Source of the DNA: a virus
Taxonomy: Duplodnaviria; Caudoviricetes
DNA length: 34,825 bases
Strand: one strand, 5' to 3'
IMG/VR virus record: IMGVR_UViG_3300031890_000032
Location: 1 to 34,825 of that record
Part shown: positions 1 to 32,685 of the stretch, piece after piece
How the letters are laid out: each line of letters starts with the position of its first letter
Numbering within the stretch: the stretch's first letter is position 1
The notes under the pieces: model-generated
What the model was told of the DNA's origin: nothing
Seen by the model: the letters and a program-made list of their open reading frames with translations, nothing else
Databases searched by the model: none
Program-made: the position numbers and the translations under genes

Positions 1-3000
1 CGGTGGCGCAGGCGTACCGGGCGCTGGCGTGTTGACGCATGCCTGCACGTCGCCGATGCCGCCACCAAACACGGCCACGTGCCCCGTGGGCACCAACGCC
101 ACAAACGGCGTGGGCGTCTGCGTGGGCTGCGGCACGAAGAACGGAGCCTGCGCCGGAGTAAGCGTGGGCGGCACCAGCGGCGTCTGCGTGGCGGTTGATG
201 TCGCAGTGCCAGTAACCGTCTGCGGCACGACGAACGGCTTAGGCGGTACAGGCGTGCCGGTGGGTGTAGCTGTGGCCGTGTTGGTTGGCGTGTGGGTGGG
301 CTGCGGAACGATGAACGGGTTAGGTGGTTGCGGCGTGTTGGTTGGCGTAGCCGTGGCAGTGCCCGTGGCAGTAGACGTGGGCTGCGGCACGAAGAACGGA
401 TTGGGCGGCTTGGGTGTGTTGGTCGGCGTGGCCGTAGCCGTACCGGTGGCCGTAACCGTGCCGGTGGCCGACGCCGTTGGGGCTGGGATGAAGAACGGCT
501 TAGGGGGTACCGGAGTATTAGTGGGTGTTGAGGTGAGTGTTACGGTCGGCGTACTGGTCGGCGTCTGCGTCGGAGACGCCGTGGGCTGCGGCACGATGAA
601 TGGGTTGGGCGGCTGCGGTGTGTTAGTGGGCGTGGCCGTGTTGGTAGGCGTTACCGTGACCGTATTCGTAGGAGTGTCGGTGGACGCTGGAATGAAAAAG
701 GGCTTGGGCGGCACGGGCGTGTTGGTCGGAGTAGCTGTGACCGTACCGGTGGGCGTGACCGTAGGCGTTGCAGTGAACGTGCTGGTAGCGGTGCCGGTGG
801 GCGCTGGAATGAAGAAGGGCTTGACGACCGGCGTGTTGGTGGGCGTAGCCGTGGCGGTGCCGGTGTTGGTTGCCGTAGCCGTAGCCGTGCCGGTGGCCGT
901 GTTGGTAGGTGCGGGAATGAAGAACGGCTTAGGCGGTACCGGAGTCCACGTTACGGTGAACGTCGCTGTGGCCGTAGCGGTCACAGTCGCGGTAAGCGTT
1001 GGCGTGGCAGTGATCGTTGGCGTGGCTGTGATCGTGTTGGTTGGCTGTGGGATAACGAACGGCTTGCTGAGGGGCGTAAAGGTGCGCGTGGGCGTAAACG
1101 TGGGCGTGGGCGTTGCAATCGTCAGCGCGTACTTGGTTCCCAAGCACGCTGCCGCTAGCGAGCGATCCGATGGCGATAGCTCCGCGCTGTACACCACCAC
1201 TTCCGCTATGGAGCCCACCAGGCCCCAGTTATTGAACGAGACGCCCAGCCGCCCGTTGCCACCACCCATGCCGACGACGTTGCTCGTGTCGCTGTAGAGC
1301 GTACTGCCCGACAGCCGCGCCGTCCAGCCGCTGGCGGTCGAGGTGACGTTGTACAGATTCCACGTGGCCAGGCTGGTGGCCGGGTTGCCCTCCGCACGGC
1401 GGGTGGTGCTGCCAAAGCTGTCGTAGATGTTGCTGTCTCCTGGCCAGCGGTAATGCGTCGCCACGCCGGACGTGCTGTACAACCACAAGCCCGACGTGGC
1501 CGTGGACGCTGGCGGGTCCACGTCGGTCTTCACCACAATGAATACGTCGAACGCAGCGGGTGTCGAGGGTAAGTCGGGCAGCGCCAGCCCTTGCGTGCCG
1601 TCGTGATGCACGGCAGGCAGCCCGTTTACCACGGCGGTGTGGTACACCGGATTCGGCAGGCCGCTGACGGTGGTAGCGTCGCGCCCGTTGCCGCTGCTGT
1701 CTGGCCACGTCAGCAGCGAGGCTCCGTCGGCCAGACCGGTAATGGCGTCGCCGCGATACCACATGGCAATGCTTGCCTGCTGCGGTAAGCAACTGGTCGG
1801 CGTAGGGGTAGCGGTACGGGTCGCCGTGGCCGTGGCCGTGGGCGTGGGCGTGTAGATGGTTGGCGTGACGGTTGGCGCGGGAATGAAGAACGGCGCGAAG
1901 CGCGGCAGCGGGCAATACTCCACGGTCAGCGATGGGCGTTGACTGGGGAAGGAGACAGTCGAAGTGGCGATGTAGATGTAGTTGTTCCCGGTGGGTGCCG
2001 CCCCGCCAGGCCGATATGTGGTCAGGCGCAGGTCGGTGAACGTACCCGCACCCACCTTGATGTTGCTGAGGTTCTGGAGCGTGTAGTTCTCGTCCGCCGT
2101 TGCCACGCCAGACAGCGGCCCCGGTATGTCGAACGCCACCGGCCCCGTTGGCGTCGGCACCCAGTCGGCGCTGCTCATAGTGCCGCTGAAGTACCGTGCG
2201 CCGACCGTCGCGTCGCTGTTTGCCGCCGTATCAACGCCCACGAACAGGTGCATCCACGCCGCCGCCACGTACGCGCCCGCTGGGGCTGCATCACCCGTCG
2301 GGAACCGCGCCACGTAGTTCTCACTGGTGTACGTGCTGGTGCCGTCGTAACTTGCCTGGATGTAGTTGGCGGTGCCGGAAACAAATCCTGGACTGCTCCC
2401 CGGCCACGACGCCCCCTGCGTGTACGGGAAGCCATCGGACGCCAGCGGCGTCAGCACAGCGAACGTGCACTGGTTGCTCATTGGGGACGGTGTAGGCGTC
2501 AGTGTAATCGTCGGAGTCAACGTCACCGTCGCAGTCGCCGTAACCGTAGCCGTGCTGGTGGCCGTGGCGGTGGCCGTGGCAGTGGCGGGCGGCGTGTTGG
2601 TGACGGTTGCCGTGGGCTGTGGGATGATGAACGGCTTGGGCGGCAGTGGAGTCCACGTGGGCGTGGGCGTCGCCGTGGCGGTGCTGGTGGCAGTGGCCGT
2701 GCTGGTGGCCGTAGCGGTGGCCGTGGCCGTAAACGTGGGCGTGTTGGTGACCGTCGCCGTTGCAAGCGGCGTCGGTGTCTGCGGGACAACCACTGGCATA
2801 AAGCGTGGCGGCGGGCAGTATTCGATTGTGAGGAAGGGCTGCTGAGTTGAGAGAGCGCTCGACGTGGCGATGTAAAGATAATTGTTGCCCGTGGGCGCAG
2901 CGCCGCCGGGCCGCACCGCCACCAGGCGCAGATCGGTGTATCCGCCGGTACCAGTCTTGATGTTGGCCACATTGGTAAGCGCAACGTTCTGATCGCCGCT

Positions 3001-4956
3001 GGCGTAACCCGAGAGCGGCCCTGGCATATCGAACGCCACCGGCCCAACCGCCGTGGCGGACCAGTCGGTCAAGTCAAGCGTTGAGCCCGCATCAAAGTAC
3101 CGCGCGCCGATCGTCGTATCGGTGTTGGCAGACGTCTGCGCGCCGACGAACAGGTGCATCCACGCCGTGGCGATGTACGAGTTGGCGGGAATCGCGGCAC
3201 CCGTAGGGAACCGGGCGACGTAGTTCTCCGACGTGTACGTGCTCGTGCCGTCCCACGACGCCTGAATGTAGTTGGCCGAGCCAGTGACAAAGCCTGTTGC
3301 ACTCCCTGGCCACGAGCCACCTTGCGCGTACGGGAAGCCGTCGCTGGAGAGTGGCGTCACCACGACGAACTGGCACTGGTTGCTCATCGGCGTGGGTGTC
3401 GTGGTAAAGGCGCTCGTTGCGGTGGCAGTCGCTGTTGCCGTTGCGGTAGCGGTAACGGTAGCGGTGCTGGTGTTGACCGGCGTATTGGTAGCCGTTGCGG
3501 TACGTGTCAAGGTGAACGTCGCGAGCGACGTTGCGGTAGCCGTTGCAGTAGGCTGCGGCACAAAGAACGGACGCGGTGCGGGGGTGATGGTCGGCGTTAC
3601 GGTGGGCGTGTTGGTCGGCACGGCCAGCGTAATGCCGTACTTTGCCGCCAGGCAGGCGTTGACCGTGGCGCGGTCCACCGAGGACAGCGCGGTATTGTAC
3701 AGCACGAACTCGGCGATGTACCCCACCAGGCCCCAGTTACTGAACGACACGCCGATGCGCCCGTTGCCACCGCCCATCGCCACGGTGTTGGTCGTATCTG
3801 AGTACACTTGCGCACCGTTGAACCGGGCGATCCAGCTAGCGGAAGCGGACGACACGTTGTATATGTTCCACGCGGCCAGGTTGTTCGGCAGGTTGCCCTC
3901 GCTGCGGCGGGTGGTGCTGCCAAAGCCGTCGTACACGTTCAAGTCACCGGGGTACCGGTAATGCGTCGCGAGCCCCGACGTACCGTACAGCCACAAGCCC
4001 GACGCTGGAGACGCCGCCGGAGGGTCAAGGTCGGCCTTCACAACGATGAACGTCTCAAGTGACGCAGGCGTCGCTGGCAGGTCGGGCACCGCCAGCCCCT
4101 GTGCGCCGTTCTGATACACGGCAGGCAGTCCGTTCACAATTCCGGTCTTGTACGTCGGATTGCCAAGGCCGCCCACCGTCGTGGCGTCCCGTCCGTTGCC
4201 GCTACTGTCGGGCCACGTGCCGAGGCTCGCACCGTTGGCGACGCCGGTAATGGCGTCCGCCTTGTACCAGATTGCCATACCGCTCAGCACCATGCAGCCC
4301 GTTGGCGTCACGGTGGCGGTAGCCGTGGCGGTGGCGGTGGCCGTGCTTGTCGGCGTGTTGGCCGGGGTGTTGGTTGCCGTGGACGTATTGACAGGGGTGT
4401 TGGTGCTGGTGGCCGTGGTTGTCCGAGTAGCGGTAGCCGTGTTGCCCGGCAGCGGGGTGTTCGTATTAGTCGCGGTCGCTGTGGGCTGCGGAACGAAGAA
4501 CGGCTTGGCCACCGGCGTGTTGGTCGGCGTGGCCGTGGCCGTGGCCGTGTACGTACGTGTCACGGTGTTGGTGAAGAGCGGCGTGTTGGTGCTGGTGGCT
4601 GTATTGACGGGCGTATTGGTAGCGGTAGCGGTGTTCACGGGTGTGTTAGTGCGTGTGGCCGTGTTGGCCGGCGTATTGGTAGCGGTAGCGGTGTTGACCG
4701 GCGTGTTGGTGCGTGTGGACGTGTTGGCAGGCGTGGGCGTCCACGTAGCGGTGGCTGTGTTGGTGGCCGTGCCGACCGGCCCAGGCGTGGGCGTTTGCGG
4801 AACAAAGAACGGGCGGAGGGTGGGGCCAGGCGGCGTGGCGGGGAGTTGCGGAATGTAGGGGATGTTCGAGCGAAGCGGTGGAATCCAGTTAGCCGCCGTG
4901 ACGGTGAAGCCAACCACCAGCACCGCAACGATCCATGCGACCCGGCGACCCCACAA
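1..4956 (-). CDS. Giant secreted Thr/Pro-rich modular adhesin-like protein (>1652 aa, truncated by window edge): signal peptide, LamG-like x2, DNRLRE/CBM96-like x2, long Thr/Pro linkers
   Basis: Not in the ORF track, consistent with having no in-frame stop in the window. TTG at 4956 lies 5 nt after GGAGG. Hand translation begins [27 protein letters not shown]. LamG-like copies at ~3628-4296 and ~1120-1791 (W..AD/GD..G...W.D.SGNGRDA...G.IAE...Y...LS..DR...KY). Second domain at ~2815-3378 and ~1912-2470. The plus-strand VGVAV shadow ORFs all fall in the matching antisense frame. Confidence 0.88.
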
Positions 4957-4971
4957 TGGTTCCTCCACCCA

Positions 4972-6399
4972 TCAGTACATGAGCCGCCCAGAGGCGACCT
5001 TGCCGACGCCGGGAGACGTGTCACCCGCGTTGGTGCCATCGCGCGTCACGAGCACATTGCAGTCGACGGGCGGTGTGGCGGTGCTGGGGATGGGCACCGA
5101 CGGAAACGAGAGAAGCGTGTACCCGCTGAAGACGTTGACGAGCGGAGCGCAGACCGATGGCGTGTACGCGCCCCACGTCATGTTGCGGAGCGGAACCGTG
5201 ACAAAGTACGGGCCGCATCCGATGGCCACCTTGAAGCACTGGTTCGTACACGAGCCCGTTCCAGAGCCGGTACAGCAGCTCAGCGGTGCGCCCGACGCGG
5301 TACATTGCGTGTTGTCCACCACCGTGCTGGCTTCCATGTCGAACCGGATCGTCGTCGCGCCGAGCGGCATCGCCCACGTCCACATGAACGGCCACGCGAA
5401 GGAGTCCGTCGTGACGGGATCGCAGTCGCGCGTGGCGATCTGTGGTTGGCCTTTGACCGAATCGTTCAGGTTGAGCGGACACGACAACGTGTTGCCGGAC
5501 GCCGGCCCCATGCCGAACTTGTTGACGAGGTAGCTGAACACCAACTGGCGATCCGCCGCCGAGAGCACTTGGTTGTAGAGGATGAACTCGCCGACGTCGC
5601 CGTTCAGGTAGTAGTTCAAGCCGCCGTCGCCCGTACCGCCATGCGACTGCCCGAGCGTCGGCGTGGCGGAGAACTGCACCGTGTTGCTCGCCGTGGAGAA
5701 GAGCGACACACCACCGAGAAAGATCTGATACCCGCCACCGGCCGAGTACACGTCATACACGCGCCACTGCGTCAGCGTGCCGACCGCCGAGTGGTCGATG
5801 CCGCCAATGCCAGTGCCCTTGCGCACCGTGGTGCCGAAGCCCTCGTAGATCTTGTCGTCGGTCCACGGGTAGGCGGTCGCCGGGTAGCCGTCGGAGGAGT
5901 TGGAGTCGGTGAAGCGCCAGAGCCCGGTGTTGTTCGTAAGCGTCGGCGGGTCGGTGGTGATCTTGACGACGATAAACGCCTCGCCCGCCGAGTAGCTGGA
6001 CGTCGAGGGAAGATTAAAGAACTGAGAGTTCGCCGCCGTGAAGCGCACCACGGGCGCGCACGCGGTGCAGCTGGCTGCGCCCGGCGGATAGGAGGAGTTC
6101 CACGGACCGTTGGCGACGTTGGTCTGGTAGGTGGGGCGGTTGGCGGCGGTGACCTGCGTGGCGTGATTGTTGTTGCCGGAGGTGTCGAACCACGTAGCGA
6201 TGGCCGCACCGTTGGCAAGCCCGACGATCTGATCGGCGCGGAGCCACTCCGTCATGTTGGCGGTGGGCGGCATGGCGCCCATCGAGAAGCTCGATGCGGC
6301 GTTGAACGGCACGATGTTGAGATTCAGCTGCGCGAGCGCAGAGACGCCAAAGCCGAGAAGCACCGCCACCGCGCCGAGCGCGAGGAGACGGCGGCGCAT
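4972..6399 (-). CDS. Secreted protein (475 aa): LamG-like jelly-roll domain plus C-terminal beta-sandwich carrying a Cys-rich insert
   Basis: Signal peptide MRRRLLALGAVAVLLGFGVSALA|Q. Contains WLRADQI..W.DTSGNNNHA...GDVGEFILYNQVLS..DR...YLVNKFG, then one CTASGAPLSCCTGSGTGSC module. Start overlaps the upstream stop (TGATG). Confidence 0.88.
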   Translation of the reverse strand: MRRRLLALGAVAVLLGFGVSALAQLNLNIVPFNAASSFSMGAMPPTANMTEWLRADQIVGLANGAAIATWFDTSGNNNHATQVTAANRPTYQTNVANGPWNSSYPPGAASCTACAPVVRFTAANSQFFNLPSTSSYSAGEAFIVVKITTDPPTLTNNTGLWRFTDSNSSDGYPATAYPWTDDKIYEGFGTTVRKGTGIGGIDHSAVGTLTQWRVYDVYSAGGGYQIFLGGVSLFSTASNTVQFSATPTLGQSHGGTGDGGLNYYLNGDVGEFILYNQVLSAADRQLVFSYLVNKFGMGPASGNTLSCPLNLNDSVKGQPQIATRDCDPVTTDSFAWPFMWTWAMPLGATTIRFDMEASTVVDNTQCTASGAPLSCCTGSGTGSCTNQCFKVAIGCGPYFVTVPLRNMTWGAYTPSVCAPLVNVFSGYTLLSFPSVPIPSTATPPVDCNVLVTRDGTNAGDTSPGVGKVASGRLMY

Positions 6400-7385
6400 C
6401 AGTAGGTAAACACCAGATCGATGAGGCTCATGTTCGAGGTATTCTCGCTCGAAGCAGAAGCCAGGTTCGCATCGCGGCAGAAGCGCACGATTACCGAGTC
6501 TTTCGGATGGCAGCCGCTCATGGTCATGCTGGTGGTGGAGAAGGAAGTCTGCCGCGACACAATGCCGCCAGTTGCCGATGGTGCCTGGCAGTTATTGCTG
6601 GCACCGGCGGTCGGTGCGGCGTAGAGCAGCGTGGCGGCGCCGAAGCCGTAGGCCCCGCCGCCGGCCGCGCATGCCACGTCGGTGTGGAAACATGCGGCGT
6701 GTGTGCCGTCGAGCACGCCACACGTGCCGGTGGTCGAGCCCGTGCAGCACGGCCACGGCACGCCCGCCGCCGTGCAGGTGGCGTTGCCCTTAGTCACCAT
6801 GCCGTAGGTCCACGTCATGTTTCCCGCCGCCACGTAGTCGGGCGGCATCGGAAAGTGGAGCAGGATGCAGCGCGACGCGCCGCAGTTCCCGGTACCGCTC
6901 CCGGTGCAGCAACTGTACGGTGTGTTGGCCCCCGTACAGTACGTGGTGCAGGTGCCCGCACCCGCGCCGGTGCAGCAAGCCCACGGTGCGCCGGAGCCCG
7001 TGCAGAGCGTGTTGGTCGCCACGGGCGCGTCAAAGTCCGCCAAGATCGCCCGGTTGGTGTTGCTCTGATAGAGCGTGCGCGGCGCGGTGAACGAGAGATT
7101 GCTCCCGAGCGACGCCCAGTTGCAGTTGCCCGCGCCCGCGCCGGTGCAGCAGTAGTAGGGCGCTGCGAGACCGGTGCAGAGCGAATTGAGACCGGGACCG
7201 CACGTACCGGTGCCCACCCCCGTGCAACACGCGTCCGGTGCGCCGGAGCCCGTGCAGAAGGCGTTGACCATCGGGTCTTCCGCGCTGGCGGCTTGGAAGC
7301 CGATCGAGCCGGCCCACACGGCTGACGGCGCAGCAAGCGCTGCTACCAACAGCACTGCCCAAAGCCACTTGATGATTCGAGTCAT
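6399..7385 (-). CDS. Secreted cysteine-rich protein (328 aa) with five CTGxGxPxxCCTGxGxGxC modules
   Basis: Signal peptide ending AVWA|G; GAGGAG RBS upstream; five repeats read directly. The scaffold (F.MP...RD...Y) resembles the C-terminal domain of the 475-aa neighbour. Confidence 0.88.
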   Translation of the reverse strand: MTRIIKWLWAVLLVAALAAPSAVWAGSIGFQAASAEDPMVNAFCTGSGAPDACCTGVGTGTCGPGLNSLCTGLAAPYYCCTGAGAGNCNWASLGSNLSFTAPRTLYQSNTNRAILADFDAPVATNTLCTGSGAPWACCTGAGAGTCTTYCTGANTPYSCCTGSGTGNCGASRCILLHFPMPPDYVAAGNMTWTYGMVTKGNATCTAAGVPWPCCTGSTTGTCGVLDGTHAACFHTDVACAAGGGAYGFGAATLLYAAPTAGASNNCQAPSATGGIVSRQTSFSTTSMTMSGCHPKDSVIVRFCRDANLASASSENTSNMSLIDLVFTY

Positions 7386-7404
7386 TGTTTCGCACTCCTC
7401 TTCT

Positions 7405-7429
7405 CGCGTGGCTGTATGGTAGCCACGCG
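7405..7429. promoter_or_regulatory. Intergenic 9-bp hairpin just upstream of the RBS of the Cys-rich gene
   Basis: CGCGTGGCT (7405-7413) / AGCCACGCG (7421-7429), 7-nt loop, no U-tract. Confidence 0.45.
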
Positions 7430-7452
7430 CTCTGCGTATAGTAAACCACCGT

Positions 7453-8055
7453 CTATAGTCCCACGGCTTGCATGCACAGCGTACCGCTACGGGCGTTGGC
7501 GGCGTCCTGGTTGAACACCAGGGCGCACGCGCCCGTGGTCGTCTGCCCCGTCAAGTGGTGCACCATCAACGCCGCGATGCCTCCGGTGGGCGTGTCCGTA
7601 ACGACGGGACCGACCACCACGTAGCCACCTGAGCTGAGATAAGGGCTGCTCCACGTCACGCACACGTTGGCCACGGCAGCCGCCGCAATCGACCCGGTGC
7701 CTACGCAGGCCCGCTGCCCGCCGCCGATCGATCCGTTGGTGGCCGGCAGGCAGAAGATCATCGCGCCCAGGGACGGGTCGCGCTCGACCACCACGCACAC
7801 CGGGGTCTGCACGGGGGTCTGCTGCGGCGTGGGCCACTGAATCATCTCGGGCTTGATGCGCGCCTCTGGCAGCGGGGTGCCCGTCTCGGTGGGGGTGGGC
7901 GGCGACGTACCGGTGGGCGTGCCGGGGGGCGTGGCGGTGGGGGGTACGGCTACGGGCGTCCACGTGCGGGTGCCCGTAAACGTGGGCAGCTGCGCCCGCG
8001 CCGGTAACTCGAGAACCATCAGCAATCCTATGACGAACAACCAGCGGCTGGTCAT
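7453..8055 (-). CDS. Secreted protein (200 aa): Thr/Pro linker plus C-terminal small beta-sandwich resembling phage tail-fibre tip (gp53-like/H-type-lectin-like) domains
   Basis: Signal peptide ending PARA|Q. The C-terminus VTWSSPY...YVVV...MQAVGL follows the typical fibre-tip pattern (vtf..pf...y.V...AiG). Confidence 0.75.
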   Translation of the reverse strand: MTSRWLFVIGLLMVLELPARAQLPTFTGTRTWTPVAVPPTATPPGTPTGTSPPTPTETGTPLPEARIKPEMIQWPTPQQTPVQTPVCVVVERDPSLGAMIFCLPATNGSIGGGQRACVGTGSIAAAAVANVCVTWSSPYLSSGGYVVVGPVVTDTPTGGIAALMVHHLTGQTTTGACALVFNQDAANARSGTLCMQAVGL

Positions 8056-8696
8056 AGCATGGGAATGTTACGCATGTTGATGACCTGAAAGTACACTTCC
8101 TGCGTGCCGGTGCCGGGGACAGGCGTCGGCGCAGTGCTGGGCACCGGGGGCGGAGCCCACGTCCATTGGCAGGTAAAGCGGTGCGTTTCGCTCGGAATCC
8201 ATACGCAGCTACCCGGTGACCCGCCACAGTCGGCGTCGGTAGCGCAGCCCTGTGTGGTGTTGCCGGCACAGTAGCCGCTCTGCACCACCACGTTCACGTC
8301 GCCTTGCAGCGTCAGGTATGTGGTGACGCTGGTGGGGGCAAACGATCCGGTGTCGTACAGCACGCTGTTGGTGGGCGTGTCGTGCACCTGGCAGCGCAAC
8401 GTCCACGGCTGCACCTTTATGTTGTCCGGCGTAGTGTATTCCAGCATCAGGCGCACGTCGGAGCCTTCGTTCACCACAAACGCAATCGCCGGTGGCAACG
8501 GCAGGCTCGTGGTACCGGGCGCAGTGGGGTCACCGGGTGGGTCCCAGCGGCGGTCGCCGAAGACGACGACGGTAGGCGTTGGATGCGGATGCCCGTGGCG
8601 GCGGTGCCACCGGTGGTGATGCGGCGCAGGCGTGGGCACCGGGGTTGCGCCCACCAGCGCCGCCAGCGACGCGCACAGTATGAGTTGACGCAGCAT
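8052..8696 (-). CDS. Secreted protein (214 aa) with His/Arg-rich segment, Ig/BppU-like beta-sandwich and a Cys-rich insert
   Basis: GGGAG RBS; hydrophobic N-terminus; HHHRWHRRHGHPHP; VNEGSDVRLMLEY... domain; CAGNTTQGCATDADCGGSPGSC. The fold call is tentative. Confidence 0.75.
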   Translation of the reverse strand: MLRQLILCASLAALVGATPVPTPAPHHHRWHRRHGHPHPTPTVVVFGDRRWDPPGDPTAPGTTSLPLPPAIAFVVNEGSDVRLMLEYTTPDNIKVQPWTLRCQVHDTPTNSVLYDTGSFAPTSVTTYLTLQGDVNVVVQSGYCAGNTTQGCATDADCGGSPGSCVWIPSETHRFTCQWTWAPPPVPSTAPTPVPGTGTQEVYFQVINMRNIPML

Positions 8697-8716
8697 GGTC
8701 TTCTCCCTTTAGGTTA

Positions 8717-11700
8717 TTATGGTAGCACGGTTACGATCATGCGAGGCACGCCGGCTTGCAAGCGCATGCCGGGTGTGGCCACGCCGCGCAGCACCGCCGC
8801 AGGCGTACCGGCCACCAGAATCATCCGCGGCGTAGCGGCCACCACATGCAGCGTCAACGGCACCTGTGGCGTGGCCGTAGGCGTACCGAGCCCCGTGGCC
8901 GTGGGCGTACTGCGGGCCGTACTGGTGGCGGTAGCCGGGGGCGTGACCGTCGGCGTAGCGGTAGGCAGCGGCGTGTCGGTAGGCGTGGCCGTGATGGTGC
9001 CCGTCGGGGTGTCCGTCGGGGTGTCCGTTGGCGGTAACGTCGGCGTGACCGTCGGCGTCACGGTCGACGTGCCGGAAGCGGTCGGCGTCGCGGTCGGTGT
9101 GCTGGTCGGCGTTACGGTCGGTGGGATCGGCGTCGGTGTGGTGGTCGGCGTCGGCGAAGCCGCAACGAGGGTCGGCGTGGCGGTCGGTGTGTAGCTCGCG
9201 GTCGGTGTGGTGGTCGGCGTCGGCGCGCACGCCTCGACCCACATCACGGGATGCCAATTAGGGTTGGAGTTCTCCAACGTCGCGATTGATACCTGTGCGG
9301 TGTCACCACGGTTGGGATTCGGCTGCGGCATGAGCAGCGGCACGAACACGCGGATCGCCGTGTAGCCGTGGGTGTTGATGGCGTCGTCGGGATTGGAACT
9401 ACCGCCAGCCGTCAGGTCGAGCGTGAAGCTGTACGTGCCCGATGTGGTCGGTGGCAGCAGCGCAAAGGACACCGGCCCAAAGGCAGTGTGGTCCTGCGCG
9501 CCGGTATAGTCGGTGGTCTGGAAACCGTCCTGTGCTACTGCGTTCATGAACGAGCCCTGCACGTAGCCAGGCCACTGATTGCTCGGAACCGTCTCGCTGG
9601 CGTTGCCGATGTTCAGGTCGAGCATGGCTTGCAAGATGGTGTAGTTGGCCAGCGGCGCGGTGTTGACGCGCATCCACGCCTCGCTGTTCTGCGTGTTGGT
9701 TTTGGTGGACGCCCAGCCCGGCGAGACGATCTCGGCACCGGAGCTGAGCGTCACGGTCCCCGAAACCGTTGGCGACCACGAACCGCCAGGATCGACCACG
9801 GAGGCCAGCACGTCCTCCGTCATCGCCCCGTTGTACCATTGGCAGGCGGGCGGCAACGTTGGCGTCGTCGTGATCGTGGGCGTTACGCTCGGCGTCTCGG
9901 TAATCGTTCCGGTGGCCGTATCGGTCGGCGTGGCGGTGGGCGTGATCGTCGGCGTGGCGGTCGGTGTGTCCGTGCCCGTGTTGGTCGGTGTGGCGGTGGC
10001 GGTCGCGGTACTCGTCGGCGTGGCAGTTGGCGTGAAGGTCACCGTCGGCGTCTGCGTCGGCGTGGCGGTTGCCGTGTTGGTCGGCGTGACAGTTGGCGTC
10101 TGAGACGGCCCTGGTGTGACGGTGGGCGTAATGGTCGGCGTCTGCGTCACCGTGCCGGTCGCGGTCACCGTCGGCGTCTGCGTCGCCGTGGGCGTCTGCG
10201 TCGGTGTGGCCGTTGGGGTTGCCGTCGGCGTGGCCGTCGGGGTGGCGGTCGGAGTGGCGGTCGGTGTGTAGGTGACAGTTGGCGTGGCTGTGGGCGTGGC
10301 TGTGGGCGTCTGAGTTGGCGTATTGGTCGGCGTCGCGGTGGGTGTGCTGGTCGGCGTGTTAGTGGGGGTCGCGGTCGGAGTGCTGGTGGCGGTCGGGGTC
10401 GCGGTCGGTGTGGCTGTCGCGGTAGCGGTGGGCGTCTGCGTCGGCGTGCGCGTCGGTGTCTGCGTGGGACTGCTCGTCGGCGTCGCGGTTGGGGTGACGG
10501 TGGGCGTCGCGGTTGGGGTGACGGTGATGGTCGCCGTGGCCGTCGGCGTCGCAGTGGGGGTTGCCGTCGGCGTCTGCGTTGGTGTGGCCGTCGGGGTCTG
10601 TGTGGGCGTCGCCGTGGGCGTGCTGGTCGGGGTGTTCGTAGGCGTTGCTGTCGGCGTGTAGGTCGCGGTTGGCGTCTGCGTCGGCGTGCTGGTCGGGGTC
10701 TGGGTTGGGGTTGCCGTCGGCGTGGCCGTCGGGGTGGCGGTCGGAGTGGCAGTCGGCGTGTTGGTTGGCGTGTTGGTCGGTGTCGCGGTAGGCGTGCTGG
10801 TCGGTGTCGCGGTGGGGGTCACGGTCGGTGTGTTGGTGATGGTCGGCGTGCGCGTCGGCGTCGCGGTCGGGGTGGCCGTCGGTGTCGCCGTGGGCGTCGC
10901 CGTGGGGGTCGCCGTCGGTGTGTTTGTCGGCGTGTTCGTAGGGGTTAATGTAGGAGTAGCAGTGTTCAATGGCGTCGATGTCGGGGTGAATGTGATGGTG
11001 CTAGTTGGTGTCACCGTTGGCGTTTGCGTAGGGGTCGCGGTCGCTTGGGCGACAGTCACGACGACGTTCGTCGACAGATCGCCAAAGAACGTCGACGTAT
11101 TATAGTTCATCTGCCACTGGAAATTGTAGGTGCCAGGACTTGATGGCGCGTTGATATTAAGCGAGAATGTTTTAGATTGACCGGGAGCGATACTGTCAGA
11201 CGTTCCCAAGAGGACTTGGTTGCTACCCCAAGACTGATTGAACGCGGGGTTCTGACTGATCATCGAGTAGTTCGTGGCCTTGGTCCACGTCGTGTTGCCG
11301 GTGTTCTTAAAGGTCACTGAGACAGACGCGACTTGACTAGGCAGCATGATGTCCGGGGGTGTGACCTGCGATATGAATTGTGCGTTGTCGATCGGGACTG
11401 TATTGGTTACCGTTGGCGTAGCGGTGCTCGTCGCTGTGGGCGTAGCCGTCGGCGTATCCGTCACTGTCCCTGTGTTTGTCACCGTGCCTGTAGCTGTGAC
11501 GGTGGGTGTCGCCGTAGGCGTTGCCGCTGCTACCGTCACGACGACATTCGTGGACATGGCCCCGAAGAACACCGTCGCATCGTACATCTGCCATTGAAAA
11601 TTGTATGTACCGATGCTGGGTGCGGTCACGTTGAAGGTGAATGTCTTGGATTGACCGGGGAGGATGTTCTCGCTGCCGCCGAGGTTGATCTGATTGAAGC

Positions 11701-12736
11701 CCCAGGTGGAATTGTACGCTGGGTTCTGACTGACCAGTGAGTAGGCCGGATAGGTCCAGGGCGTGTTGCCGGTGTTCTTCATCGTCACGGAGACGGAGTA
11801 GACGTTGACCGGCAGCATGACCGAGGGCACGGACTGAGAGATGAACTGCGCATCGTCGATCGCGACGGTGTTCGTGAAGGTTGCCGTGGGCGTTCGAGTT
11901 GGTGTGGACGTCGGAGTCACCGTGGGTGTGTTCGTAGGTGTGTTAGTTATGGTGTATGTAGGTGTAGCCGTCGGAGTTGCTGTTGGCGTGTTTGTTATTG
12001 TATATGTAGATGTTACTGTAGGAGTGCGTGTGGGCGTTGCCGTGATCGTGGGTGTCGGCGTCGGGAGGCAATATTCGATGGTTAACCATGGTATCTGATT
12101 GGATATGCCAACGGTAGACGTCGCGATATAGATGTAGGTGGTGCCGGTAGTAGGTGCAACGCCGCCCGGTCGAGAAGCCACGAGGCGTATGTCGGTGTTC
12201 CCACTACCCTTGACGATGCTGCCTAGATTTGATAAGGTGTAATTCTCCTCACCGGTTGCTACGCTAGATAGTGGCGCTGCAACATCGAATGCGACAACGC
12301 CGGCTGGTGCGGATACCCAGTCTGCGCTTCCAAGCGGTGTGCCGCCGGTGAAGTAGCGGGCGCTGAGAGTGGTGTCGGTGTTACTGGCGGCAGTGGCACC
12401 GACGAAGATATGCATCCATGCTGTCGCGATCGTTGCTGTTGATGGGATGGATGCGCCGGTTGGGAACCTGGCAACGTAGTTCTCTGAGGTGTACGTTGGA
12501 GCCGAACTAGACCAAGACGCCTGCACGTAGTTGGCATTGCCCGAGACGAAGGTGGTCGCACTGCCGGGCCAGGTATTGCTCTGCGACGTGGGGAAGCCGT
12601 CGCCGGCAGCTGGCGTGATCGTGACGAAGCTGCACGAGCCGTTCCAGGGCGTGGGTGTGGCGGTCTGTGCACTGGCCCGCTGGCCGCCCAGCAGCACGCC
12701 GAGCAGCACCAGGGCTGCAGCGACTCGGCGTGCCAT
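8717..12736 (-). CDS. Large secreted mucin-like Thr/Pro-rich protein (~1339 aa): DNRLRE/CBM96-like domain, two NBR1-Ig-like domains, ~400-aa TPT stalk, second diverged DNRLRE-like domain
   Basis: Start reassigned to ATG 12736 ([23 protein letters not shown]|Q), since the longer track ORF overlaps the upstream gene. NBR1-Ig-like motif (AQFISQ..P....S.SVT.KNTGNT.W...PGQSKTF....AP...GTYNFQWQM...FFG) at ~11530-11860 and ~11055-11390. Confidence 0.9.
9860..11050 (-). repeat. Low-complexity coding repeat (TPT[A/Q/N/S/V])n, ~12-nt period
   Basis: About 400 codons of TPTA-type tetrapeptides; includes an exact 47-nt duplication at 10212-10258 and 10704-10750. Confidence 0.95.
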
Positions 12737-12843
12737 GCGCGCCCGGCTCAGTGCATCCGCCAGTACATCGGCATGACGCCGACCAGGCCGAGGACGGCGA
12801 GGATGATGAGCACCGTCAGCAGCAGGAGGTAGCATTGCCTCTA

Positions 12844-13326
12844 TCACTGCGCTACGGTCCAGTCGATGATGTAATACACCGCCCGTATTGCGTCGCCAGG
12901 GTCTGGCGCGGTACCCAGACGCAGCCGCTCTTCCAGCGTACCGTCGGTCAGCGTGGCGCGGTACAGCCAATACGCTCCGGGCGGAATAGCCGTGCCGGGG
13001 TCGAGTTCCGCGCCAGTGGCCGGATCCCGGTCGGGGGACTCGAACGGCAACAGCTCCACGCGGTTCCACAGCACGTACAGCAACGGCCCCGGCTGGCGCA
13101 GCACCAGGTCCTGGTTAGGGATGGCGTACTCCGTCAGCGCCGTGGGGTACGGCAGCTGCTCCGCAGGCTGAAGCGTCAAGTTCCCACGGAAGAAGCCCCC
13201 CAGCACGTTCTCCGCTGCACCGGCAGCTTGCAACCTGGTGTCCATGGCGCTGGCCGCAATAGGGGCTTGCCGGCTGTAGGGTCCCGTCAGCGTCAGGCGC
13301 TGGTTGGTGGGGCGTTGGCTCGTCAT
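12844..13326 (-). CDS. Hypothetical protein (160 aa), no signal peptide
   Basis: ATGA overlap with the upstream gene, co-oriented, normal composition. Confidence 0.75.
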
Positions 13327-15629
13327 TGGCCGGTGCCCAGCAACGCCGTCAAGGTGGTGCTACACGCCGTCAGCGCTTTGCCCAGCGTCTCGCCGGGGTT
13401 GGGCGTGTTGTCAGCCATCACGCTGCCTGCCGTGGTGCTACTGCGAATCAGCAGGTCACCGGGAGTCACCGTGCCATCGCAGGGAACGCCACTGATGCTG
13501 CCCGTGGTCTGAATGTCGCCGATGTTCCCTGCCGTAATGCTCGCCACCGCTACCCCAAGCGCCAGGCGGGCAGTGCCGCTCGTCGAGCACGTACCCACTC
13601 CGGCCGCACCGTTAGCGCACACCACACGCCCACCCACGATAGTGGACCCGGTGGTGTTCGTCATCACCACCCAGCTGGGCGTATGTTGCTCGGTGCCGTC
13701 GATGTACGCCAGCAGCGTACCGGTTTGCAAAATCTCAGTGCCTTGCCAGAAGTTGGAAAAGACCACGTCGCTCGAAGAGTTTGATCCGGTCAGCGTCGTC
13801 AGGATGCCGTACTTACCAGTGCCCGCCCCAGTTGACTCCGCCCAGTTGTCGATGAGGAACAAGTTGATGAACGACGTAGCCGCACCACTCGTGAATGTGA
13901 TCTGCCCGCACGTAGAGGACGCTTGGCACCCGTTGAGCGTGTTGTCGCGCACCGTAACATCTGTAACCAAGCCGCCTGCACTCGCAGAGAACACGATGGC
14001 AGCGTTCGGCACATTGCGGATGACGTTCCCGAAAACACCCTGCGTCGAAACCAAGCCGCCGTTGGTACTGAGCACGATGCCATACGCATTGCCGCTGGGG
14101 TTGACGCCGGGGATGATGTTATCGACCACCTGAGTGGTCTTGCCTTCGCTCAGCTCGATGCCCGCTGCCGTGCCGGTAATGGCGGGGCACCCCGTCAGAC
14201 TGCCGATGTTGTTGTCCTGGATCACGCTGTTGCTGGCATTCTGCACGTACACACCGCGCGAGTTCGACAAGGCCGACCGTGACCCAAAGCACTCCAGGCG
14301 GTTGCCGGCAATCACCATAGCGTCGTGCATCTTGGCCGTAGTGAACCGAATGCCGTCGGAGCCGCTGAGCCGGATAAATCCGTTGGTGACGGTCACGTGG
14401 CCCATGTTTTCGGTAGTCGGGTTGGATGCCGGGTCGCCTACCGCACCCGTGGGCGTGCCCAGACTGTTGCTGCACTGGTTGGTGGTAAAGCCGTCTAGCG
14501 TGACCCACCCGCTGACGGGTGCCAGGCTGGTGGTGCCTCCGATCACGATGCAGCTACTGCCTGCCGTGTTGACGTCCACGTTCTGTAGCTGCGCGCCCGC
14601 TACCGCATGCACGCCGTAGATGCTCGCGTAGTACACTCGCAGGTTGCTCGCATAGATGGGTTGGCCAGGGTTGCCCGCGCCGCCCGTGTAACCTTGACCA
14701 ACAAGGTACACGCCGTCGGCCTGGCTGCTGCCCGTAAATGCTGGCCGAGGCCCCCAGCCGCTGTTGGTGGGGTCGCCCACCTGAATGTCATCAACGATGC
14801 CTTGGGACTGCTGCACGTCCACACCACCGCCCAGCGGCCCGATGATCGTCAGGTGCTCCAGGCGCAAGTTATTCACGCGCCAGGCCACCACGCGCGCCAC
14901 GCGCGGGTCGGTTTGCCCACCGGCAGAGGGTGCCCAGGAAATGCTACTCTGCGATCGGTTGTCAATGTAGCAGTTGCGCACCGTGATGTTGTTGATCGCC
15001 AAGGCATACGCACCGGGTGCAATGAAGTTGATCTTGATAGGTGCATCTGTGAACGTGCTGGCAGTTTGCAACTGGGCGTTCTGGCAGTCCAGTTCAGTGT
15101 TGGCGCGGCCGATCGTGATGGCCGTGGACTGTACCGCCGTTTTCGGCGGAATGGTCACGCGGCACCAGCTGCCGCTGCCCACTTGAGTGTTGCAGTCGGC
15201 CAGCGCGGCGTTCACCTGCGCGCCGATGTCTGCACCAGGGTACGCGCCCGCGTTGAGCGTGTAGTTGAGCACCTTGTTGTTATTGAGGACCACCATGTCG
15301 CCAGCGCCGGCTTTGTTGTTCAGCATGGTGACGAGATCGTTCGGCGGGCCACCCGCCAGGCAGCCGCTGCCCGTGCCCGCGCCGGTGCAGCAGGCATACG
15401 GTGCGCCCGTCCCCGTACATTCAGACACCACCGTGGACGTAAGGCCGAGCGCGTGCTGCATGGCAAACAGGGCGCTGTTCTGCGTGTTGTGCGCGCCGCT
15501 GGTTATGGTGTCCCCAGGGCCCACCACCGGCAGGTTGGTGGTGTTGTCGTATCCACCGGGAAAGTTGGTCTGCGCCTGACTCACCGCAGCCCACAGCACC
15601 ACCAGCAGCAACAGCAGTTTGAGTTTCAT
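13323..15629 (-). CDS. Tailspike-like parallel beta-helix (pectin-lyase-like fold) protein with signal peptide (768 aa)
   Basis: AAAGGAGG RBS; MKLKLLLLLVVLWAAVSQA|Q. YPGADIGAQVNAALA precedes repeated N.I.N/GI.L rungs (residues ~130-640). The C-terminal LGVAV...G.I...G.V.PGDLL...G..LGKAL resembles DUF2190/cement or spike C-terminal chaperone-type domains. One Cys module near the N-terminus. Confidence 0.85.
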   Translation of the reverse strand: MKLKLLLLLVVLWAAVSQAQTNFPGGYDNTTNLPVVGPGDTITSGAHNTQNSALFAMQHALGLTSTVVSECTGTGAPYACCTGAGTGSGCLAGGPPNDLVTMLNNKAGAGDMVVLNNNKVLNYTLNAGAYPGADIGAQVNAALADCNTQVGSGSWCRVTIPPKTAVQSTAITIGRANTELDCQNAQLQTASTFTDAPIKINFIAPGAYALAINNITVRNCYIDNRSQSSISWAPSAGGQTDPRVARVVAWRVNNLRLEHLTIIGPLGGGVDVQQSQGIVDDIQVGDPTNSGWGPRPAFTGSSQADGVYLVGQGYTGGAGNPGQPIYASNLRVYYASIYGVHAVAGAQLQNVDVNTAGSSCIVIGGTTSLAPVSGWVTLDGFTTNQCSNSLGTPTGAVGDPASNPTTENMGHVTVTNGFIRLSGSDGIRFTTAKMHDAMVIAGNRLECFGSRSALSNSRGVYVQNASNSVIQDNNIGSLTGCPAITGTAAGIELSEGKTTQVVDNIIPGVNPSGNAYGIVLSTNGGLVSTQGVFGNVIRNVPNAAIVFSASAGGLVTDVTVRDNTLNGCQASSTCGQITFTSGAATSFINLFLIDNWAESTGAGTGKYGILTTLTGSNSSSDVVFSNFWQGTEILQTGTLLAYIDGTEQHTPSWVVMTNTTGSTIVGGRVVCANGAAGVGTCSTSGTARLALGVAVASITAGNIGDIQTTGSISGVPCDGTVTPGDLLIRSSTTAGSVMADNTPNPGETLGKALTACSTTLTALLGTGQ

Positions 15630-15641: not shown

Positions 15642-16589
15642 TTACCCCGGTACGCACTCAGCGGGCAGCACGCGCACCGAGAACAGCATCTTATCGGTCT
15701 TGGCGGCAAAGCCGCGTATCTGTAGCTCCACCAGAATCGGCCCGCCCTGCGTTGGGTCCGGCGTGCCGAAGATCAGCCCAGGATTGGCGGCAAACGGATC
15801 AATGATCCAGATGGCCGTGTGGGTGTGCGTCTCGGGAAACGCCGTCTCGTACCCCACACGCAACGGGTCGGCGTCCGTCGGTGGTATGTACCCGTTCAGC
15901 GCCACAACCAGCTTGGTGTTATCAGCCCGATCCTTGGGCACAAAGTTGTTGTCTTTGATCGCCGACACCAGCCCATCCTGACCGTTGACTTCTAACGTGA
16001 CCAGCAGCCGCTCGCCAGGGTACACGCACACCGCTGCCTTGGCGTCCGGCACTGGAATCCATGCCGTGCGGCTGTGCGCCTCGTACCCGTTGGGAGCCAT
16101 CGACACGCCGTACACCGGGTGTGGGCGGGCGTCCACGGTGGCATGTAAGTCGGTGAACCCTGTGCCGATCCAGTGCAACGGCACCACCCCTTGCGGCGGA
16201 AAGTCGCGCACGGGGTCGTAAATCTGGATCATGCCTAGCTGCTCGTCGGCGTTGCTGGCCAACATGGCCAGCAGCAAGTCTTTGTCCTTATCGACGTTCA
16301 CCGAACGAGTACCCTGCCGGCAGCGCGTGCCTACCCGCAGGGCGCGCACCGGTTGCGTGCTGGGCTCGAACAGGTACGTATCCACGTCCTTGACTTCGAC
16401 AAACAGGTCATCGCCATCCAGCGTGGCGGAGATATCGCCGCCGTCGATCCAGATGGCGCGGCCCAGTACGTCGCCGGCCAACCAGCGCGCTGCCTCAGAC
16501 AGCTGCTGGATTACCGTGTTAATCGCAACGGCGTCCAGCAGACTGCCATTCTGTATGGCCTCCGCAGCGGGTAAGTATTCGAGGCTCAT
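15642..16589 (-). CDS. Minor tail/baseplate protein, paralogue 3 (~315 aa)
   Basis: Start MSLEYLP at 16589 (ATGA overlap). Shares VPL.W...D.RP.P and a downstream PG motif with its neighbours; position after hub. Confidence 0.7.
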   Translation of the reverse strand: MSLEYLPAAEAIQNGSLLDAVAINTVIQQLSEAARWLAGDVLGRAIWIDGGDISATLDGDDLFVEVKDVDTYLFEPSTQPVRALRVGTRCRQGTRSVNVDKDKDLLLAMLASNADEQLGMIQIYDPVRDFPPQGVVPLHWIGTGFTDLHATVDARPHPVYGVSMAPNGYEAHSRTAWIPVPDAKAAVCVYPGERLLVTLEVNGQDGLVSAIKDNNFVPKDRADNTKLVVALNGYIPPTDADPLRVGYETAFPETHTHTAIWIIDPFAANPGLIFGTPDPTQGGPILVELQIRGFAAKTDKMLFSVRVLPAECVPG

Positions 16590-17689
16590 TTCGTCTTCGA
16601 TATGCCGCCGGTCACCGCAAACTGCGGCTGCGGCGCAACCAACCGTGCCCACACTTGGGGGAACCGCACATCCACTTTGTACTGCCGCGCCTGCCCCTGT
16701 GGAATCAAATAGGCGGGGCAGATGTCGTGTATGGCATTCACCAGGCTCTTGTACGCTGCCCGCAGGTACAGCGTCTGCTTCTGGGTGTTCTGTGCGTGGT
16801 CGGCAATGGCCTGCGTCTGCGCAACGTCCAACCCGTTGAACGCCTCGACGCCCGCTTCCTCGCTGAGGTTGGTGCTCAACGCGCTGTTGATGTAGTGGGC
16901 CAGGGACTTCTGCAGCGTGTAGTCCTGCGGGTTCTGTATGTTGTTACCGAACGGCACGTCGCCATGCTTTTCGTCGATAGCGTCTTCGTACGGCAGCATA
17001 TACGTCACCGCAGTGCACACTTCAAACACTGCGCCCACGGGCGCGTACAGCCAGATGCGGTAGTCCCGCGCAATGGACCACCCATTGTCGATGTCCGCAC
17101 TGTACTGCGGCGTGGTCAGGTACGTGACGTTCTTGTCCACGTACAGAATCTGGCCAGGGCGGCGGCGCAGGTCGATCAACCCGTTCCAGCCTGCGCCAGC
17201 TATCATCGCCGCCACGGGTACCGCCACGTTGGCCACGTCGGGCACTTCCATGTAGGTGGTCTTGCGTTGCAGGCTCGGTGCCGTGATGGGGTACGGCACG
17301 ATGGTGCCCATACCGCGCTGGACTATGAATCCCAGGAAGGTGCCGATCACTGTTGGAGTAGCTGGAACGCCAGTCACAGTCTGCTGAGCCGAAACCGCCC
17401 GCAGGGCCACGCGGTCTTGTTGCAGCACTTCTTCCAGGCCCCACGCCTCCATCGGCTGCACTTGCGCGACATCTGGACTGATGGACATCAGCGCCGTCGC
17501 GCCGCCTTGCACCCACACCGGCCCGTACCGGTCAGCCAGCAGCGTACCGGGGCGGCTCTTGGCCCAGCGCACCAAGTTCCACTGCGCGTACGGGTCCACG
17601 GGGCTGATCACCGTGCCGGGCACCGGGCTGGTCGCGTCGGTGTACGTGTTCTGCAACCGCACCGGCGTATCGTCAACTGGCGTGCTCAT
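16586..17689 (-). CDS. Minor tail/baseplate protein, paralogue 2 (~367 aa)
   Basis: Start MSTPVDD at 17689 (ATGA overlap); VPVAAM...IDLRRRP motif. Confidence 0.7.
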   Translation of the reverse strand: MSTPVDDTPVRLQNTYTDATSPVPGTVISPVDPYAQWNLVRWAKSRPGTLLADRYGPVWVQGGATALMSISPDVAQVQPMEAWGLEEVLQQDRVALRAVSAQQTVTGVPATPTVIGTFLGFIVQRGMGTIVPYPITAPSLQRKTTYMEVPDVANVAVPVAAMIAGAGWNGLIDLRRRPGQILYVDKNVTYLTTPQYSADIDNGWSIARDYRIWLYAPVGAVFEVCTAVTYMLPYEDAIDEKHGDVPFGNNIQNPQDYTLQKSLAHYINSALSTNLSEEAGVEAFNGLDVAQTQAIADHAQNTQKQTLYLRAAYKSLVNAIHDICPAYLIPQGQARQYKVDVRFPQVWARLVAPQPQFAVTGGISKTK

Positions 17690-18879
17690 CCCGTTACCAA
17701 ACACGTAGCCGGCGTTGGCGGCGTGGCAGCAGCCACCGTGGACTGCACGGCATACGGCACCCATTCGGCACGCAGCGTGGCCCACACCACCTTGATGCCG
17801 TCGCTCTTATGGATAGGCCCTTCTGGGTCTTTCTTGAAACTGTACGTGTAGAACTCCGTACAGTAGATGCCATTGAAGTGGAAGATGCCTGGTGCAGCCT
17901 GCGACGCCTCATCAGGTTGCACCGCCGTGAACGCTTTAGGCAGGAACAGACACTCGAACGCCCAGGCGTTGCGCGAGATCTGCGGAAACGCCGCATGGTA
18001 CACCGGGAAGCACGTGCCCGCGCGCCCGCCGTACCAGAAGTGCCCGGTGGCAAAGCTGTCTGCCGGGTCGCCACGGCTGAGGCTGTACTTGCAGGCGATG
18101 TCAGGGCGCGCAGGGTCCTTCTGATCGAAACTCCCCTCGAACTGCACCTGCCCCGTGAACCACACCGCCTGCCCTGGCACCAACCAGAACGACCCTATGT
18201 TGCACGGCACCAGCAGACCCTCTTCGCTGTCGTACTCTGGGGCAATCATTATCGGCGCGTCTATGTTCACGTATTGCGCAATGCGCGGCAGCCACGGCGG
18301 CGTAGGTCGGCAGTCCCGCACGGCAGTGATCGCACCACTCACCACGCGCACCCAGGCCAGCGGCACCGCAGATGACCAGTCCATAGTCGTGACGGCTGCC
18401 ACCGTCTGCGCCGTTACCGCCACCCAATACGGGGTAGTAGGGTCGTACCGCGCATAGACAATGTACTCGCCGTCCGCCGGAAACGCCCCGACCGTGGTCA
18501 GCGTGGTCAGGTCGTTCAACTCGAGACGCATGCTGCCGTCCACGGTGCCCAGCGGTGCCGTACCGGCAGGGTTGGCCGGCGCGTACAGGTACCCGGCCGA
18601 CGGCGGATAGCTGGTGGTCCACTGGCTCAACGGCACACCCAGCTGCACCACCCCAGGCGAGAAGGTGACCGAGTTGCTGCCCGCAATAGCATGAAACCCG
18701 CCCAGCACCATGTTGGGACCGGCTGCGGCCCGTGCCCGAATGATCTCGCGCCGTGCATCGTACAGCGACGTACGGAACGCCGTGGCGTCTGGTGAGATGG
18801 GCTGCGCCGTGGTGGGAAACGGCGACGGCGGCACCGTGGTGATGCTGGGCAGCGGCACCGGAAAGTTCGGTGTGGTCAT
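17686..18879 (-). CDS. Minor tail/baseplate protein, paralogue 1 (397 aa)
   Basis: VTFSPG...YIVYARYD...VPLAWVRV..GAITAVRDCRP, a pattern typical of siphophage minor tail proteins. Confidence 0.75.
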   Translation of the reverse strand: MTTPNFPVPLPSITTVPPSPFPTTAQPISPDATAFRTSLYDARREIIRARAAAGPNMVLGGFHAIAGSNSVTFSPGVVQLGVPLSQWTTSYPPSAGYLYAPANPAGTAPLGTVDGSMRLELNDLTTLTTVGAFPADGEYIVYARYDPTTPYWVAVTAQTVAAVTTMDWSSAVPLAWVRVVSGAITAVRDCRPTPPWLPRIAQYVNIDAPIMIAPEYDSEEGLLVPCNIGSFWLVPGQAVWFTGQVQFEGSFDQKDPARPDIACKYSLSRGDPADSFATGHFWYGGRAGTCFPVYHAAFPQISRNAWAFECLFLPKAFTAVQPDEASQAAPGIFHFNGIYCTEFYTYSFKKDPEGPIHKSDGIKVVWATLRAEWVPYAVQSTVAAATPPTPATCLVTG

Positions 18880-20752: not shown

Positions 20753-20754
20753 GG

Positions 20755-29112: not shown

Positions 29113-29145
29113 GATACTGGGCCTCCTTTTATAGGCGGTGGAGTG

Positions 29146-29466: not shown

Positions 29467-29470
29467 CTGT

Positions 29471-31123: not shown

Positions 31124-31153
31124 TTTCCGTTCTCCTTCCTCTCTGTAGCCGCA

Positions 31154-32678: not shown

Positions 32679-32685
32679 AGTAACG

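Follow-up and report, generated by a model that had tools for sequence, protein, structure and literature searches.

The stretch of DNA analyzed here, which we call the window, is IMG/VR record IMGVR_UViG_3300031890_000032, a single 34.8-kb viral contig (34,825 nucleotides) in which all genes form one run on the minus strand. Our subject is a cassette in which eight minus-strand genes follow one another directly and, by our test, all but one start with a secretory leader. The genes are g1 (13323..15629, 768 amino acids, aa), g2 (12844..13326, 160 aa, without a leader), g3 (8717..12736, 1339 aa), g4 (8052..8696, 214 aa), g5 (7453..8055, 200 aa), g6 (6399..7385, 328 aa), g7 (4972..6399, 475 aa), and g8 (1..4956), which is cut by the window end and reaches 1741 aa in full in a second assembly, L009. 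A previous sequence-only reading had described a cassette of more than 15 kb with leaders on seven of eight genes, packed or overlapping and beginning 12 nt after the tail genes. All eight open reading frames and the seven leader starts were found where that reading had placed them. The length comes to about 15.9 kb once g8 is completed from L009, and the spacing agrees: 12 nt separate the last tail gene from g1, and the later gaps are −4, 107, 20, −4, 67, −1, and 15 nt.

The cassette lies inside the phage, because other assemblies run on from it into terminase genes. Two of them (L008 and L009) extend beyond the window's left end. Past g8, on the same strand, they carry genes of 78, 173, and 227 aa and then the gene for the terminase large subunit (phrog_675, E = 2e-82), followed by helicase- and primase-like genes that were read by eye rather than by profile scan. 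The claim that the late operon ends in the cassette does not stand, since the same-strand run continues into the terminase genes. Genes for the terminase, head–tail connector, and tape measure (phrog_675, phrog_442, phrog_5, and tape measure protein families) form one co-directional run with the cassette. The source is an uncultured long-tailed phage from soil, and the cassette is a block of its late genes. GC content at third codon positions (GC3) is 0.76–0.87 in the cassette and 0.78–0.86 in the tail genes. The cassette contains three promoter-like sites against 2.6 expected (sigma-70 consensus only) and eight terminator-like sites against 10.7 expected.

Twenty-four of the soil-metagenome runs listed hold 97–98 per cent of the window's words, seventeen of them being possible sources, and none of the listed runs holding the stretch is RNA. 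Contigs from two runs outside the possible-source set, X18 and X19, bridge the junction between tail genes and cassette. Two artifacts raised by the sequence-only reading, host DNA beyond an attachment (att) site and an assembly chimera, are ruled out by the continuity of L008 and L009 to the terminase together with these junction contigs.

Leaders, cysteines, and membrane anchors

Leaders were called with our own heuristic, not SignalP, which looks for a basic n-region, a 10-residue uncharged hydrophobic core, and small residues at −3 and −1. Seven of the eight cassette genes are positive, compared with none of twenty-four upstream genes; an upstream gene of 93 aa with an uncharged hydrophobic N-terminus is negative. 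At internal positions of the seven proteins the test fires 14 times in 4416. The seven leaders are 17–25 residues long and have the classic basic, hydrophobic, and small-X-small layout, with the predicted cut in g1 falling after SQA at residue 19. Three of them (g3, g7, and g8) contain an RR pair, so the Tat route is possible for these proteins. An in-frame ATG at 12835 would lengthen the leader of g3. No membrane anchor was found in the seven proteins, in agreement with the sequence-only reading on their C-termini: beyond residue 40 no 19-residue segment exceeds a hydropathy of 1.62, and the full g8 of L009 has a polar C-terminal end.

After the predicted cut, the mature proteins contain eighteen (g1), four (g3), six (g4), six (g5), twenty-six (g6), twelve (g7), and fourteen (g8) cysteines; a seventh cysteine of g4 sits within its leader. 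All seven counts are even. For ten leaderless proteins the count is odd in seven, even in two, and zero in one. The earlier label 'cysteine-rich' fits g6 (7.9%), g4 and g5 (about 3%), and g1 and g7 (2.3–2.5%), but not g3 and g8 (0.3–0.5%). Similarly, 'mucin-like' describes g3 and g8 and not the other cassette proteins; Thr/Pro/Ser runs cover 683 residues of g3, 742 of g8, and 52 of g5. From these sequences we strongly infer both Sec export with leader cleavage and disulfide formation in the exported proteins. O-glycosylation of the g3 and g8 stalks is plausible.

Domains of the cassette proteins

g1 is made up of a leader, one four-Cys motif, a putative beta-helix body, and a C-terminal cement-like domain. 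The beta-helix, previously read as a spike, does have a Pfam match (Beta_helix, E = 1e-4), though a weak one that falls below the cut-off (22.2 bits vs 25.9). The C-terminal 120 or so residues (13323..13691, minus strand) resemble Phage_cement_2 (PF09956) by profile and in ESM Atlas models. The profile match (E = 6e-4) reaches 20.5 bits against a cut-off of 24 and covers positions 7–95 of the 103 in the model, and the predicted models align to a cement cluster with template modeling (TM) scores of 0.66/0.75. Another cluster listed by the Atlas contains 19 per cent Peptidase_G2, the domain's own predicted fold has a pLDDT of 31, and there is a weak profile match to residues 125–190 of the A-1(L) neck fiber protein gp82 (8keg, E = 0.29). 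Judged from sequence and models, the domain may equally well be a trimerizing cap or a capsid foot.

g2 has neither leader nor cysteine and matches no family in Pfam, PHROGs, or NCBIfam; BLASTP gave no significant match between it and a 397-aa tail gene. It is a candidate for a docking piece made in the cytoplasm. After the double stop of g2, in the same frame, a stretch of about twenty-nine codons (12841-12749, minus strand) encodes a 20-residue hydrophobic run with coding-like codon use and is possibly a gene for a small membrane peptide.

The two giants share parts. In g3 the leader is accompanied by two NBR1-type Ig domains (PF16158, E = 3e-14), long Thr/Pro stalks, and a domain of about 190 aa that is common to g8 (58%) and present there in two copies. 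g8 further has a leader, two phrog_10356 domains, and Thr/Pro stalks. Its Thr/Pro stalk is broken by fifteen to sixteen copies of PF[FIV][IV]P, which is not repeated in any other protein we fetched; these copies are possible binding sites for a partner. Relative to the window (4147-4178), L008 lacks eleven codons, in-frame, in the first phrog_10356 domain of g8.

g4 (a leader, a His/Arg patch, and a domain without assignment) had been called BppU-like, which we could not reproduce: it has no match in Pfam, PHROGs, NCBIfam, or the ESM Atlas. Nor was there a significant BLASTP match between g4 and an adaptor extension. g5 has a leader, a short Thr/Pro linker, and a C-terminal domain without assignment. 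In g6 the leader precedes a probable jelly roll into which five four-Cys motifs are inserted. The predicted model of g6 is of low confidence (pLDDT 40), with a best Z of 7.2 to carbohydrate-binding modules; Foldseek with this poor model found no PDB match at E = 1e-3 and one uncharacterized viral match. In g7 the leader is followed by a LamG-type domain and a C-terminal domain with one four-Cys motif. The LamG-like call for g7 and g8 holds in that their domain matches phrog_10356 'virion structural protein' in PHROGs (E = 1e-13 to 1e-16), but no Pfam LamG match was found. At E = 1e-3 this domain of g7 has 7747 relatives; among the best 150, 129 start with Met and 56 of these are positive in the leader test, and giant secreted proteins are frequent in this set.

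Searches of cultured phages returned no match for g1, whole g7, g4, or the end of g1. The LamG part of g7 found only matches at E = 0.03–0.5 there, and the two examined are both leaderless. g1 and g7 have no PDB sequence match. Unlike canonical tail fibers and tailspikes, seven of the cassette proteins carry leaders, and scans of Pfam, PHROGs, and NCBIfam matched no N-terminal virion-anchoring family in them. The same scans matched no fiber or spike family in the leaderless tail-tip genes (15642..22090). Since no leaderless fiber or spike was recognized in the tail module, the exported set holds the only recognizable receptor-binding-type domains in the window.

Conservation of the leaders and the four-Cys motif

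The leaders are kept in diverged orthologs. This applies to the g7 ortholog P0042 (474 aa, 44%) and to the g6 relatives P0175 (65%), P0176 (30%), and P0178 (32%). Queries with the tube, g1, g7, terminase, and hub found nothing in genome contigs, and in contigs from viruses and metagenomes only copies at about 100 per cent; homologs of the hub and tube proteins at 46–57 per cent were not placed on DNA.

We searched for the four-Cys motif as CT[GA]xxxPxxCCTG, with CT[GA]xxxPxxCCTGxxxxxC as the extended form. Viral contigs contained seventy motif loci. Twenty-two were dropped: five were copies of the source phage, nine nearly duplicated another locus, seven matched by chance or out of frame, and one had no motif in frame. 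L077, which is the source phage, was left out of the counts, and an overlap between L065 and L082 remains in them. The motif gene passes the leader test at 35 of 45 loci, and nine of the remaining ten show a leader by eye. Leaders also cluster around these genes: 52 of 145 genes within two places of a motif gene are positive, against 17 of 245 at a distance of at least five places (P = 1e-12).

A PHROG scan of up to six leaderless neighbors at forty-four loci found a head, connector, tail, or terminase match at thirty-two. Motif genes follow tail genes in L038, L042, L057, L058, L073, and L078 and a capsid gene in L035, L040, L045, L052, and L076. They lie between portal and capsid in L053, between neck and tail tube in L032, and among baseplate-type genes in L039 and L061. 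Because the positions vary, the pattern is one of placement anywhere in the late genes, beyond the fiber slot. The source phage itself has a ninth leader-bearing gene (L077:9568-11547, −, 659 aa) upstream of both the window and its head-region genes, with two four-Cys motifs and a weak tail-spike match. In one late-gene family, gp57 of pelagiphage HTVC023P is leaderless and the member in L022 has both a leader and the Cys motif. Some motif genes of other phages encode glycosidase, lyase-like, or GDSL domains.

Three further observations concern other phages. In L045 a glycosyltransferase gene (6532-7587, +) has the major capsid gene on one side and two leader-bearing genes on the other. The SU10-type major capsid protein of L026 (12008-13312, −) and a phrog_1731 virion structural protein of L052 (4685-5698, +) each have a hydrophobic N-terminal extension of 40–50 residues, a hint that other phages may assemble heads tethered to a membrane.

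Likely host

Genome contigs contain at least 123 motif loci (about 600 estimated), and fifty-six of the 123 listed have an in-frame match to the extended motif, some of them by chance. The clear matches are mostly from Binatia, unclassified 'delta proteobacteria', Nitrospirota, Desulfobacterota-type, and Acidobacteriota genomes; many have leaders and some have Thr/Pro stalks. The phage has a GC content of 65 per cent, which together with these motif-bearing genomes suggests a Binatia-like diderm as host. In the class of a Binatus genome, tube matches were found in 6 of 401 genomes, four aligned at 24–31 per cent, and a terminase match of about 30 per cent in one of 401. With so few matches, the prophage search does not fix the host. 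Four of the six distant prophages in that class have leader-bearing late genes, three with lyase-like spike domains.

In four motif-bearing genomes, all incomplete, the disulfide oxidase DsbB was found in none and VKOR in one. Matches to PF02366 (PMT-type) were present in all five motif-bearing genomes scanned, and also in six of fourteen controls including E. coli, so this family is no sign of protein O-glycosylation. Loci L128 and L145 and one of the five genomes scanned for PF02366 rest on the unpublished G001; the argument holds without them.

Cultured phages and comparable systems

The closest parallel comes from Cellulophaga phages. Gene products gp091-095 of phi10:1 (KC821618) and gp085-087 of phi18:3 (KC821620) all have leaders, and seven of these eight are annotated in GenBank notes as 'structural protein, experimental MS/MS proteomics'. 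Experimental evidence linking leaders to particles comes from this annotation alone, and it concerns other phages. The same leader-bearing N-terminus occurs in gp093 of phi10:1, a siphovirus, and gp086 of phi18:3, a podovirus. As in the cassette, leader-bearing genes stand in consecutive runs, in phi10:1 after the tail genes. Unlike the cassette, the phi10:1 proteins are Cys-poor (0–2), the host belongs to another phylum, and we found no sequence match between the two sets. The visible annotation of these records does not mention leaders.

To our knowledge, described cement and decoration proteins are cytoplasmic and leaderless. In the accessible text of PMC7602432 the word 'signal' occurs zero times. 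The end of g1 resembles PF09956, one of a set of cement and fiber-bead proteins (with lambda gpD, phi29 gp8.5, and A-1(L) gp82/gp81) that bind late or after assembly, as proposed below for the cassette proteins; here, in contrast, the domain forms the C-terminus of a protein that has a leader and is 768 aa long. Binding of Dec to mature P22 capsids is reported in vitro (PMC7602432), and the A-1(L) neck fiber is reported to self-assemble and then to be hooked on (PMC10966104).

The MAT fibers of Bdellovibrio bacteriovorus, according to PMC10769870, are adhesins that resemble phage fibers, carry signal peptides, and mature once outside the cytoplasm. They share the signal peptide with our proteins (here called by heuristic) but are chromosomal and sit on the cell surface. 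All of them have a common post-leader domain of about 130 aa and many have an S74 chaperone; BLASTP found no such shared domain, and Pfam no S74 match, in the cassette.

In filamentous phages, coat proteins have signal peptides and stay in the inner membrane, through which the particle is extruded. Virion proteins are likewise routed through Sec there; the window differs in belonging to a tailed phage that encodes a terminase and a tape measure, and its leader-bearing proteins lack an anchor. A 2026 survey, as far as its accessible text goes, counts signal peptides on prophage CAZymes as marking secreted enzymes, with structural genes excluded (PMC13507307). In a literature search judged mostly from titles and covering few subscription papers, we found no description of signal peptides or export for tailed-phage fibers or decorations.

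Possible roles of the leader-bearing proteins

The textbook view is that a tailed phage completes its particles in the cytoplasm, ahead of lysis. The sequence-only reading had offered two outcomes for the cassette proteins, joining the particle at lysis or acting outside the cell or on its surface. Export is well supported, because the leaders are present and conserved, the block is internal to the phage, and there is no chimera. Between the two outcomes we lean, by a modest degree, toward the first, in which the products would be appendages, exported and disulfide-bonded, that attach to completed particles when the cell lyses. On this proposal the cassette would be expressed late and the host Sec pathway would export its seven leader-bearing products, whose leaders would be cleaved and which would be oxidized and folded in the periplasm. 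Head and tail would be finished in the cytoplasm, and lysis would mix the two compartments. The exported proteins could then dock on the particles as fibers, spikes, or head decorations. Candidate docking sites are the leaderless g2, the tail-tip proteins, the N-terminal extension of the head–tail adaptor, or the capsid by way of the cement-like end of g1. Their role would be to bind glycans at a distance during adsorption in soil, and the gain would be access to host-type adhesin modules, disulfide-knotted and stalked, that fold only after export.

The proposal draws on observed features: the position of the cassette within the run of virion genes, the leaders and their conservation, the even cysteine counts, the lack of anchors, and the virion-type domains. 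Late docking is physically reasonable by analogy with Dec of P22 and the A-1(L) neck fiber.

Several points weigh against docking. The phage is known here from sequence alone. Searches returned no close relative that shares the gene order, so conservation was seen for leaders in protein orthologs and not for the cassette as a block. At twelve of the forty-four scanned motif loci there was no head or tail match (three lysis only, nine none); one of the twelve, L018, adjoins helicase genes. The Cys motif, Thr/Pro stalks, and NBR1-Ig and LamG-type domains are common in secreted proteins of cells. Among leader-bearing genes of other phages, even cysteine counts are not significantly enriched (59/87 vs 112/189, P = 0.18), and cysteine richness alone is no proof of export, as virion proteins of crAss001 carry disulfides (available part of PMC10172136). 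All-against-all BLASTP found no common N-terminal docking domain after the leaders of the seven. The MS detection in phi10:1 and phi18:3, known from GenBank notes, could be co-purification. The cement-like domain of g1 sits after about 645 residues and is not a small stand-alone protein with a free N-terminal arm, the means by which beta-tulip cements mainly bind the capsid (PMC7602432, in the text available). A bacterial secreted protein (L230:1468-2475, −), adjoining a glycosyltransferase-like gene, ends in the same type of domain, so the end of g1 may only trimerize.

The strongest alternative, a real possibility that we rate well below docking, is that the seven are late exported factors that never join the particle and instead build, within the envelope or surrounding the cell as it dies, a stalked coat of lectins or depolymerases. 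Such a coat might loosen capsule or matrix for release, tether the burst to neighboring hosts, or act as decoys. It would account for the domain stock shared with secreted proteins of Binatia-like bacteria, for the seven having no virion anchor in common, and for motif genes elsewhere that encode glycosidase, lyase-like, and GDSL domains. The gp093/gp086 N-terminus, found with both sipho- and podovirus tails, shows that block to be independent of tail type, and stalked proteins of 1300–1700 aa are unusual as virion parts. A coat fits less well with the MS 'structural' annotation of leader-bearing proteins in phi10:1 and phi18:3 and with the cement-like and phrog_10356 domains; moreover, no membrane anchor would keep the proteins on the cell, and the tail module has no other recognized fiber gene.

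We consider it unlikely that the cassette is lysogenic-conversion cargo, meaning host-derived secreted adhesins expressed from a prophage that alter the lysogen surface. Its host-type modules would suit cargo, as would the four in six prophages with leader-bearing late genes in the class of the Binatus genome. The genes, however, are on the same strand as the tail genes, overlap or nearly abut, match them in GC3, and are interleaved with the leaderless g2. There is no excess of promoters or terminators, so the own signals and foreign composition of a moron are not seen, and no integrase was noticed among the flanking ORFs viewed, for which no profile search was made. That the leaders are inner-membrane tethers or propeptides holding fiber assembly at the cytoplasmic face is very improbable: the hydrophobic extensions on the L026 capsid and L052 cement proteins, which must meet cytoplasmic partners, offer a model for it, but the leaders have the classic layout in 17–25 residues and leave even cysteine counts after the predicted cut.

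Returning to docking at lysis, a broader version would have tailed phages of Binatia-like and related diderms build an outer kit, disulfide-knotted, stalked, and probably glycosylated, by two-compartment assembly, with CT[GA]xxxPxxCCTGxxxxxC tagging it across podo-, sipho-, and myo-type genomes. We regard this generalization as evenly balanced. The contribution of the window lies in how large the block is, in its stalked giants, and in a Cys tag that can be searched for. If receptor-binding parts do mature in the periplasm, lysis would be an assembly step, and host oxidases and glycosyltransferases would shape the virion. Virion proteins would then include the products of many phage genes whose signal peptides have had them classed as 'secreted auxiliary enzymes' or as host contamination.

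Other genes of the phage

The remaining genes of the window, all on the minus strand, are those of a head–tail module. The leaderless minor tail or tail-tip genes upstream of g1, assigned by position, encode proteins of 315, 367, 397, 168, 462, 134, and 316 aa. Farther upstream are the gene for the tape measure protein (23646..27074, PHROGs E = 1e-15) and, by position, a probable tail tube gene (28279-29112). PHROGs matches to neck (phrog_5), head morphogenesis (phrog_1657), and head–tail adaptor (phrog_442) fall within 28279..33711. The adaptor (32686-33711, −) has an N-terminal extension of about 118 aa, a candidate docking site for neck fibers, and the adaptor adjoining leader-bearing genes in L035 has one of about 220 aa. 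Also upstream are a probable capsid gene of 396 aa (L001) and a gene of 814 aa, neither with a family match. The head region also contains large acidic genes (L077:2617-9254, −; 1060, 591, and 322 aa) with repeated 'HPR/QPR..G.FT'-like motifs, which we take to resemble polyvalent proteins linked to head morphogenesis.

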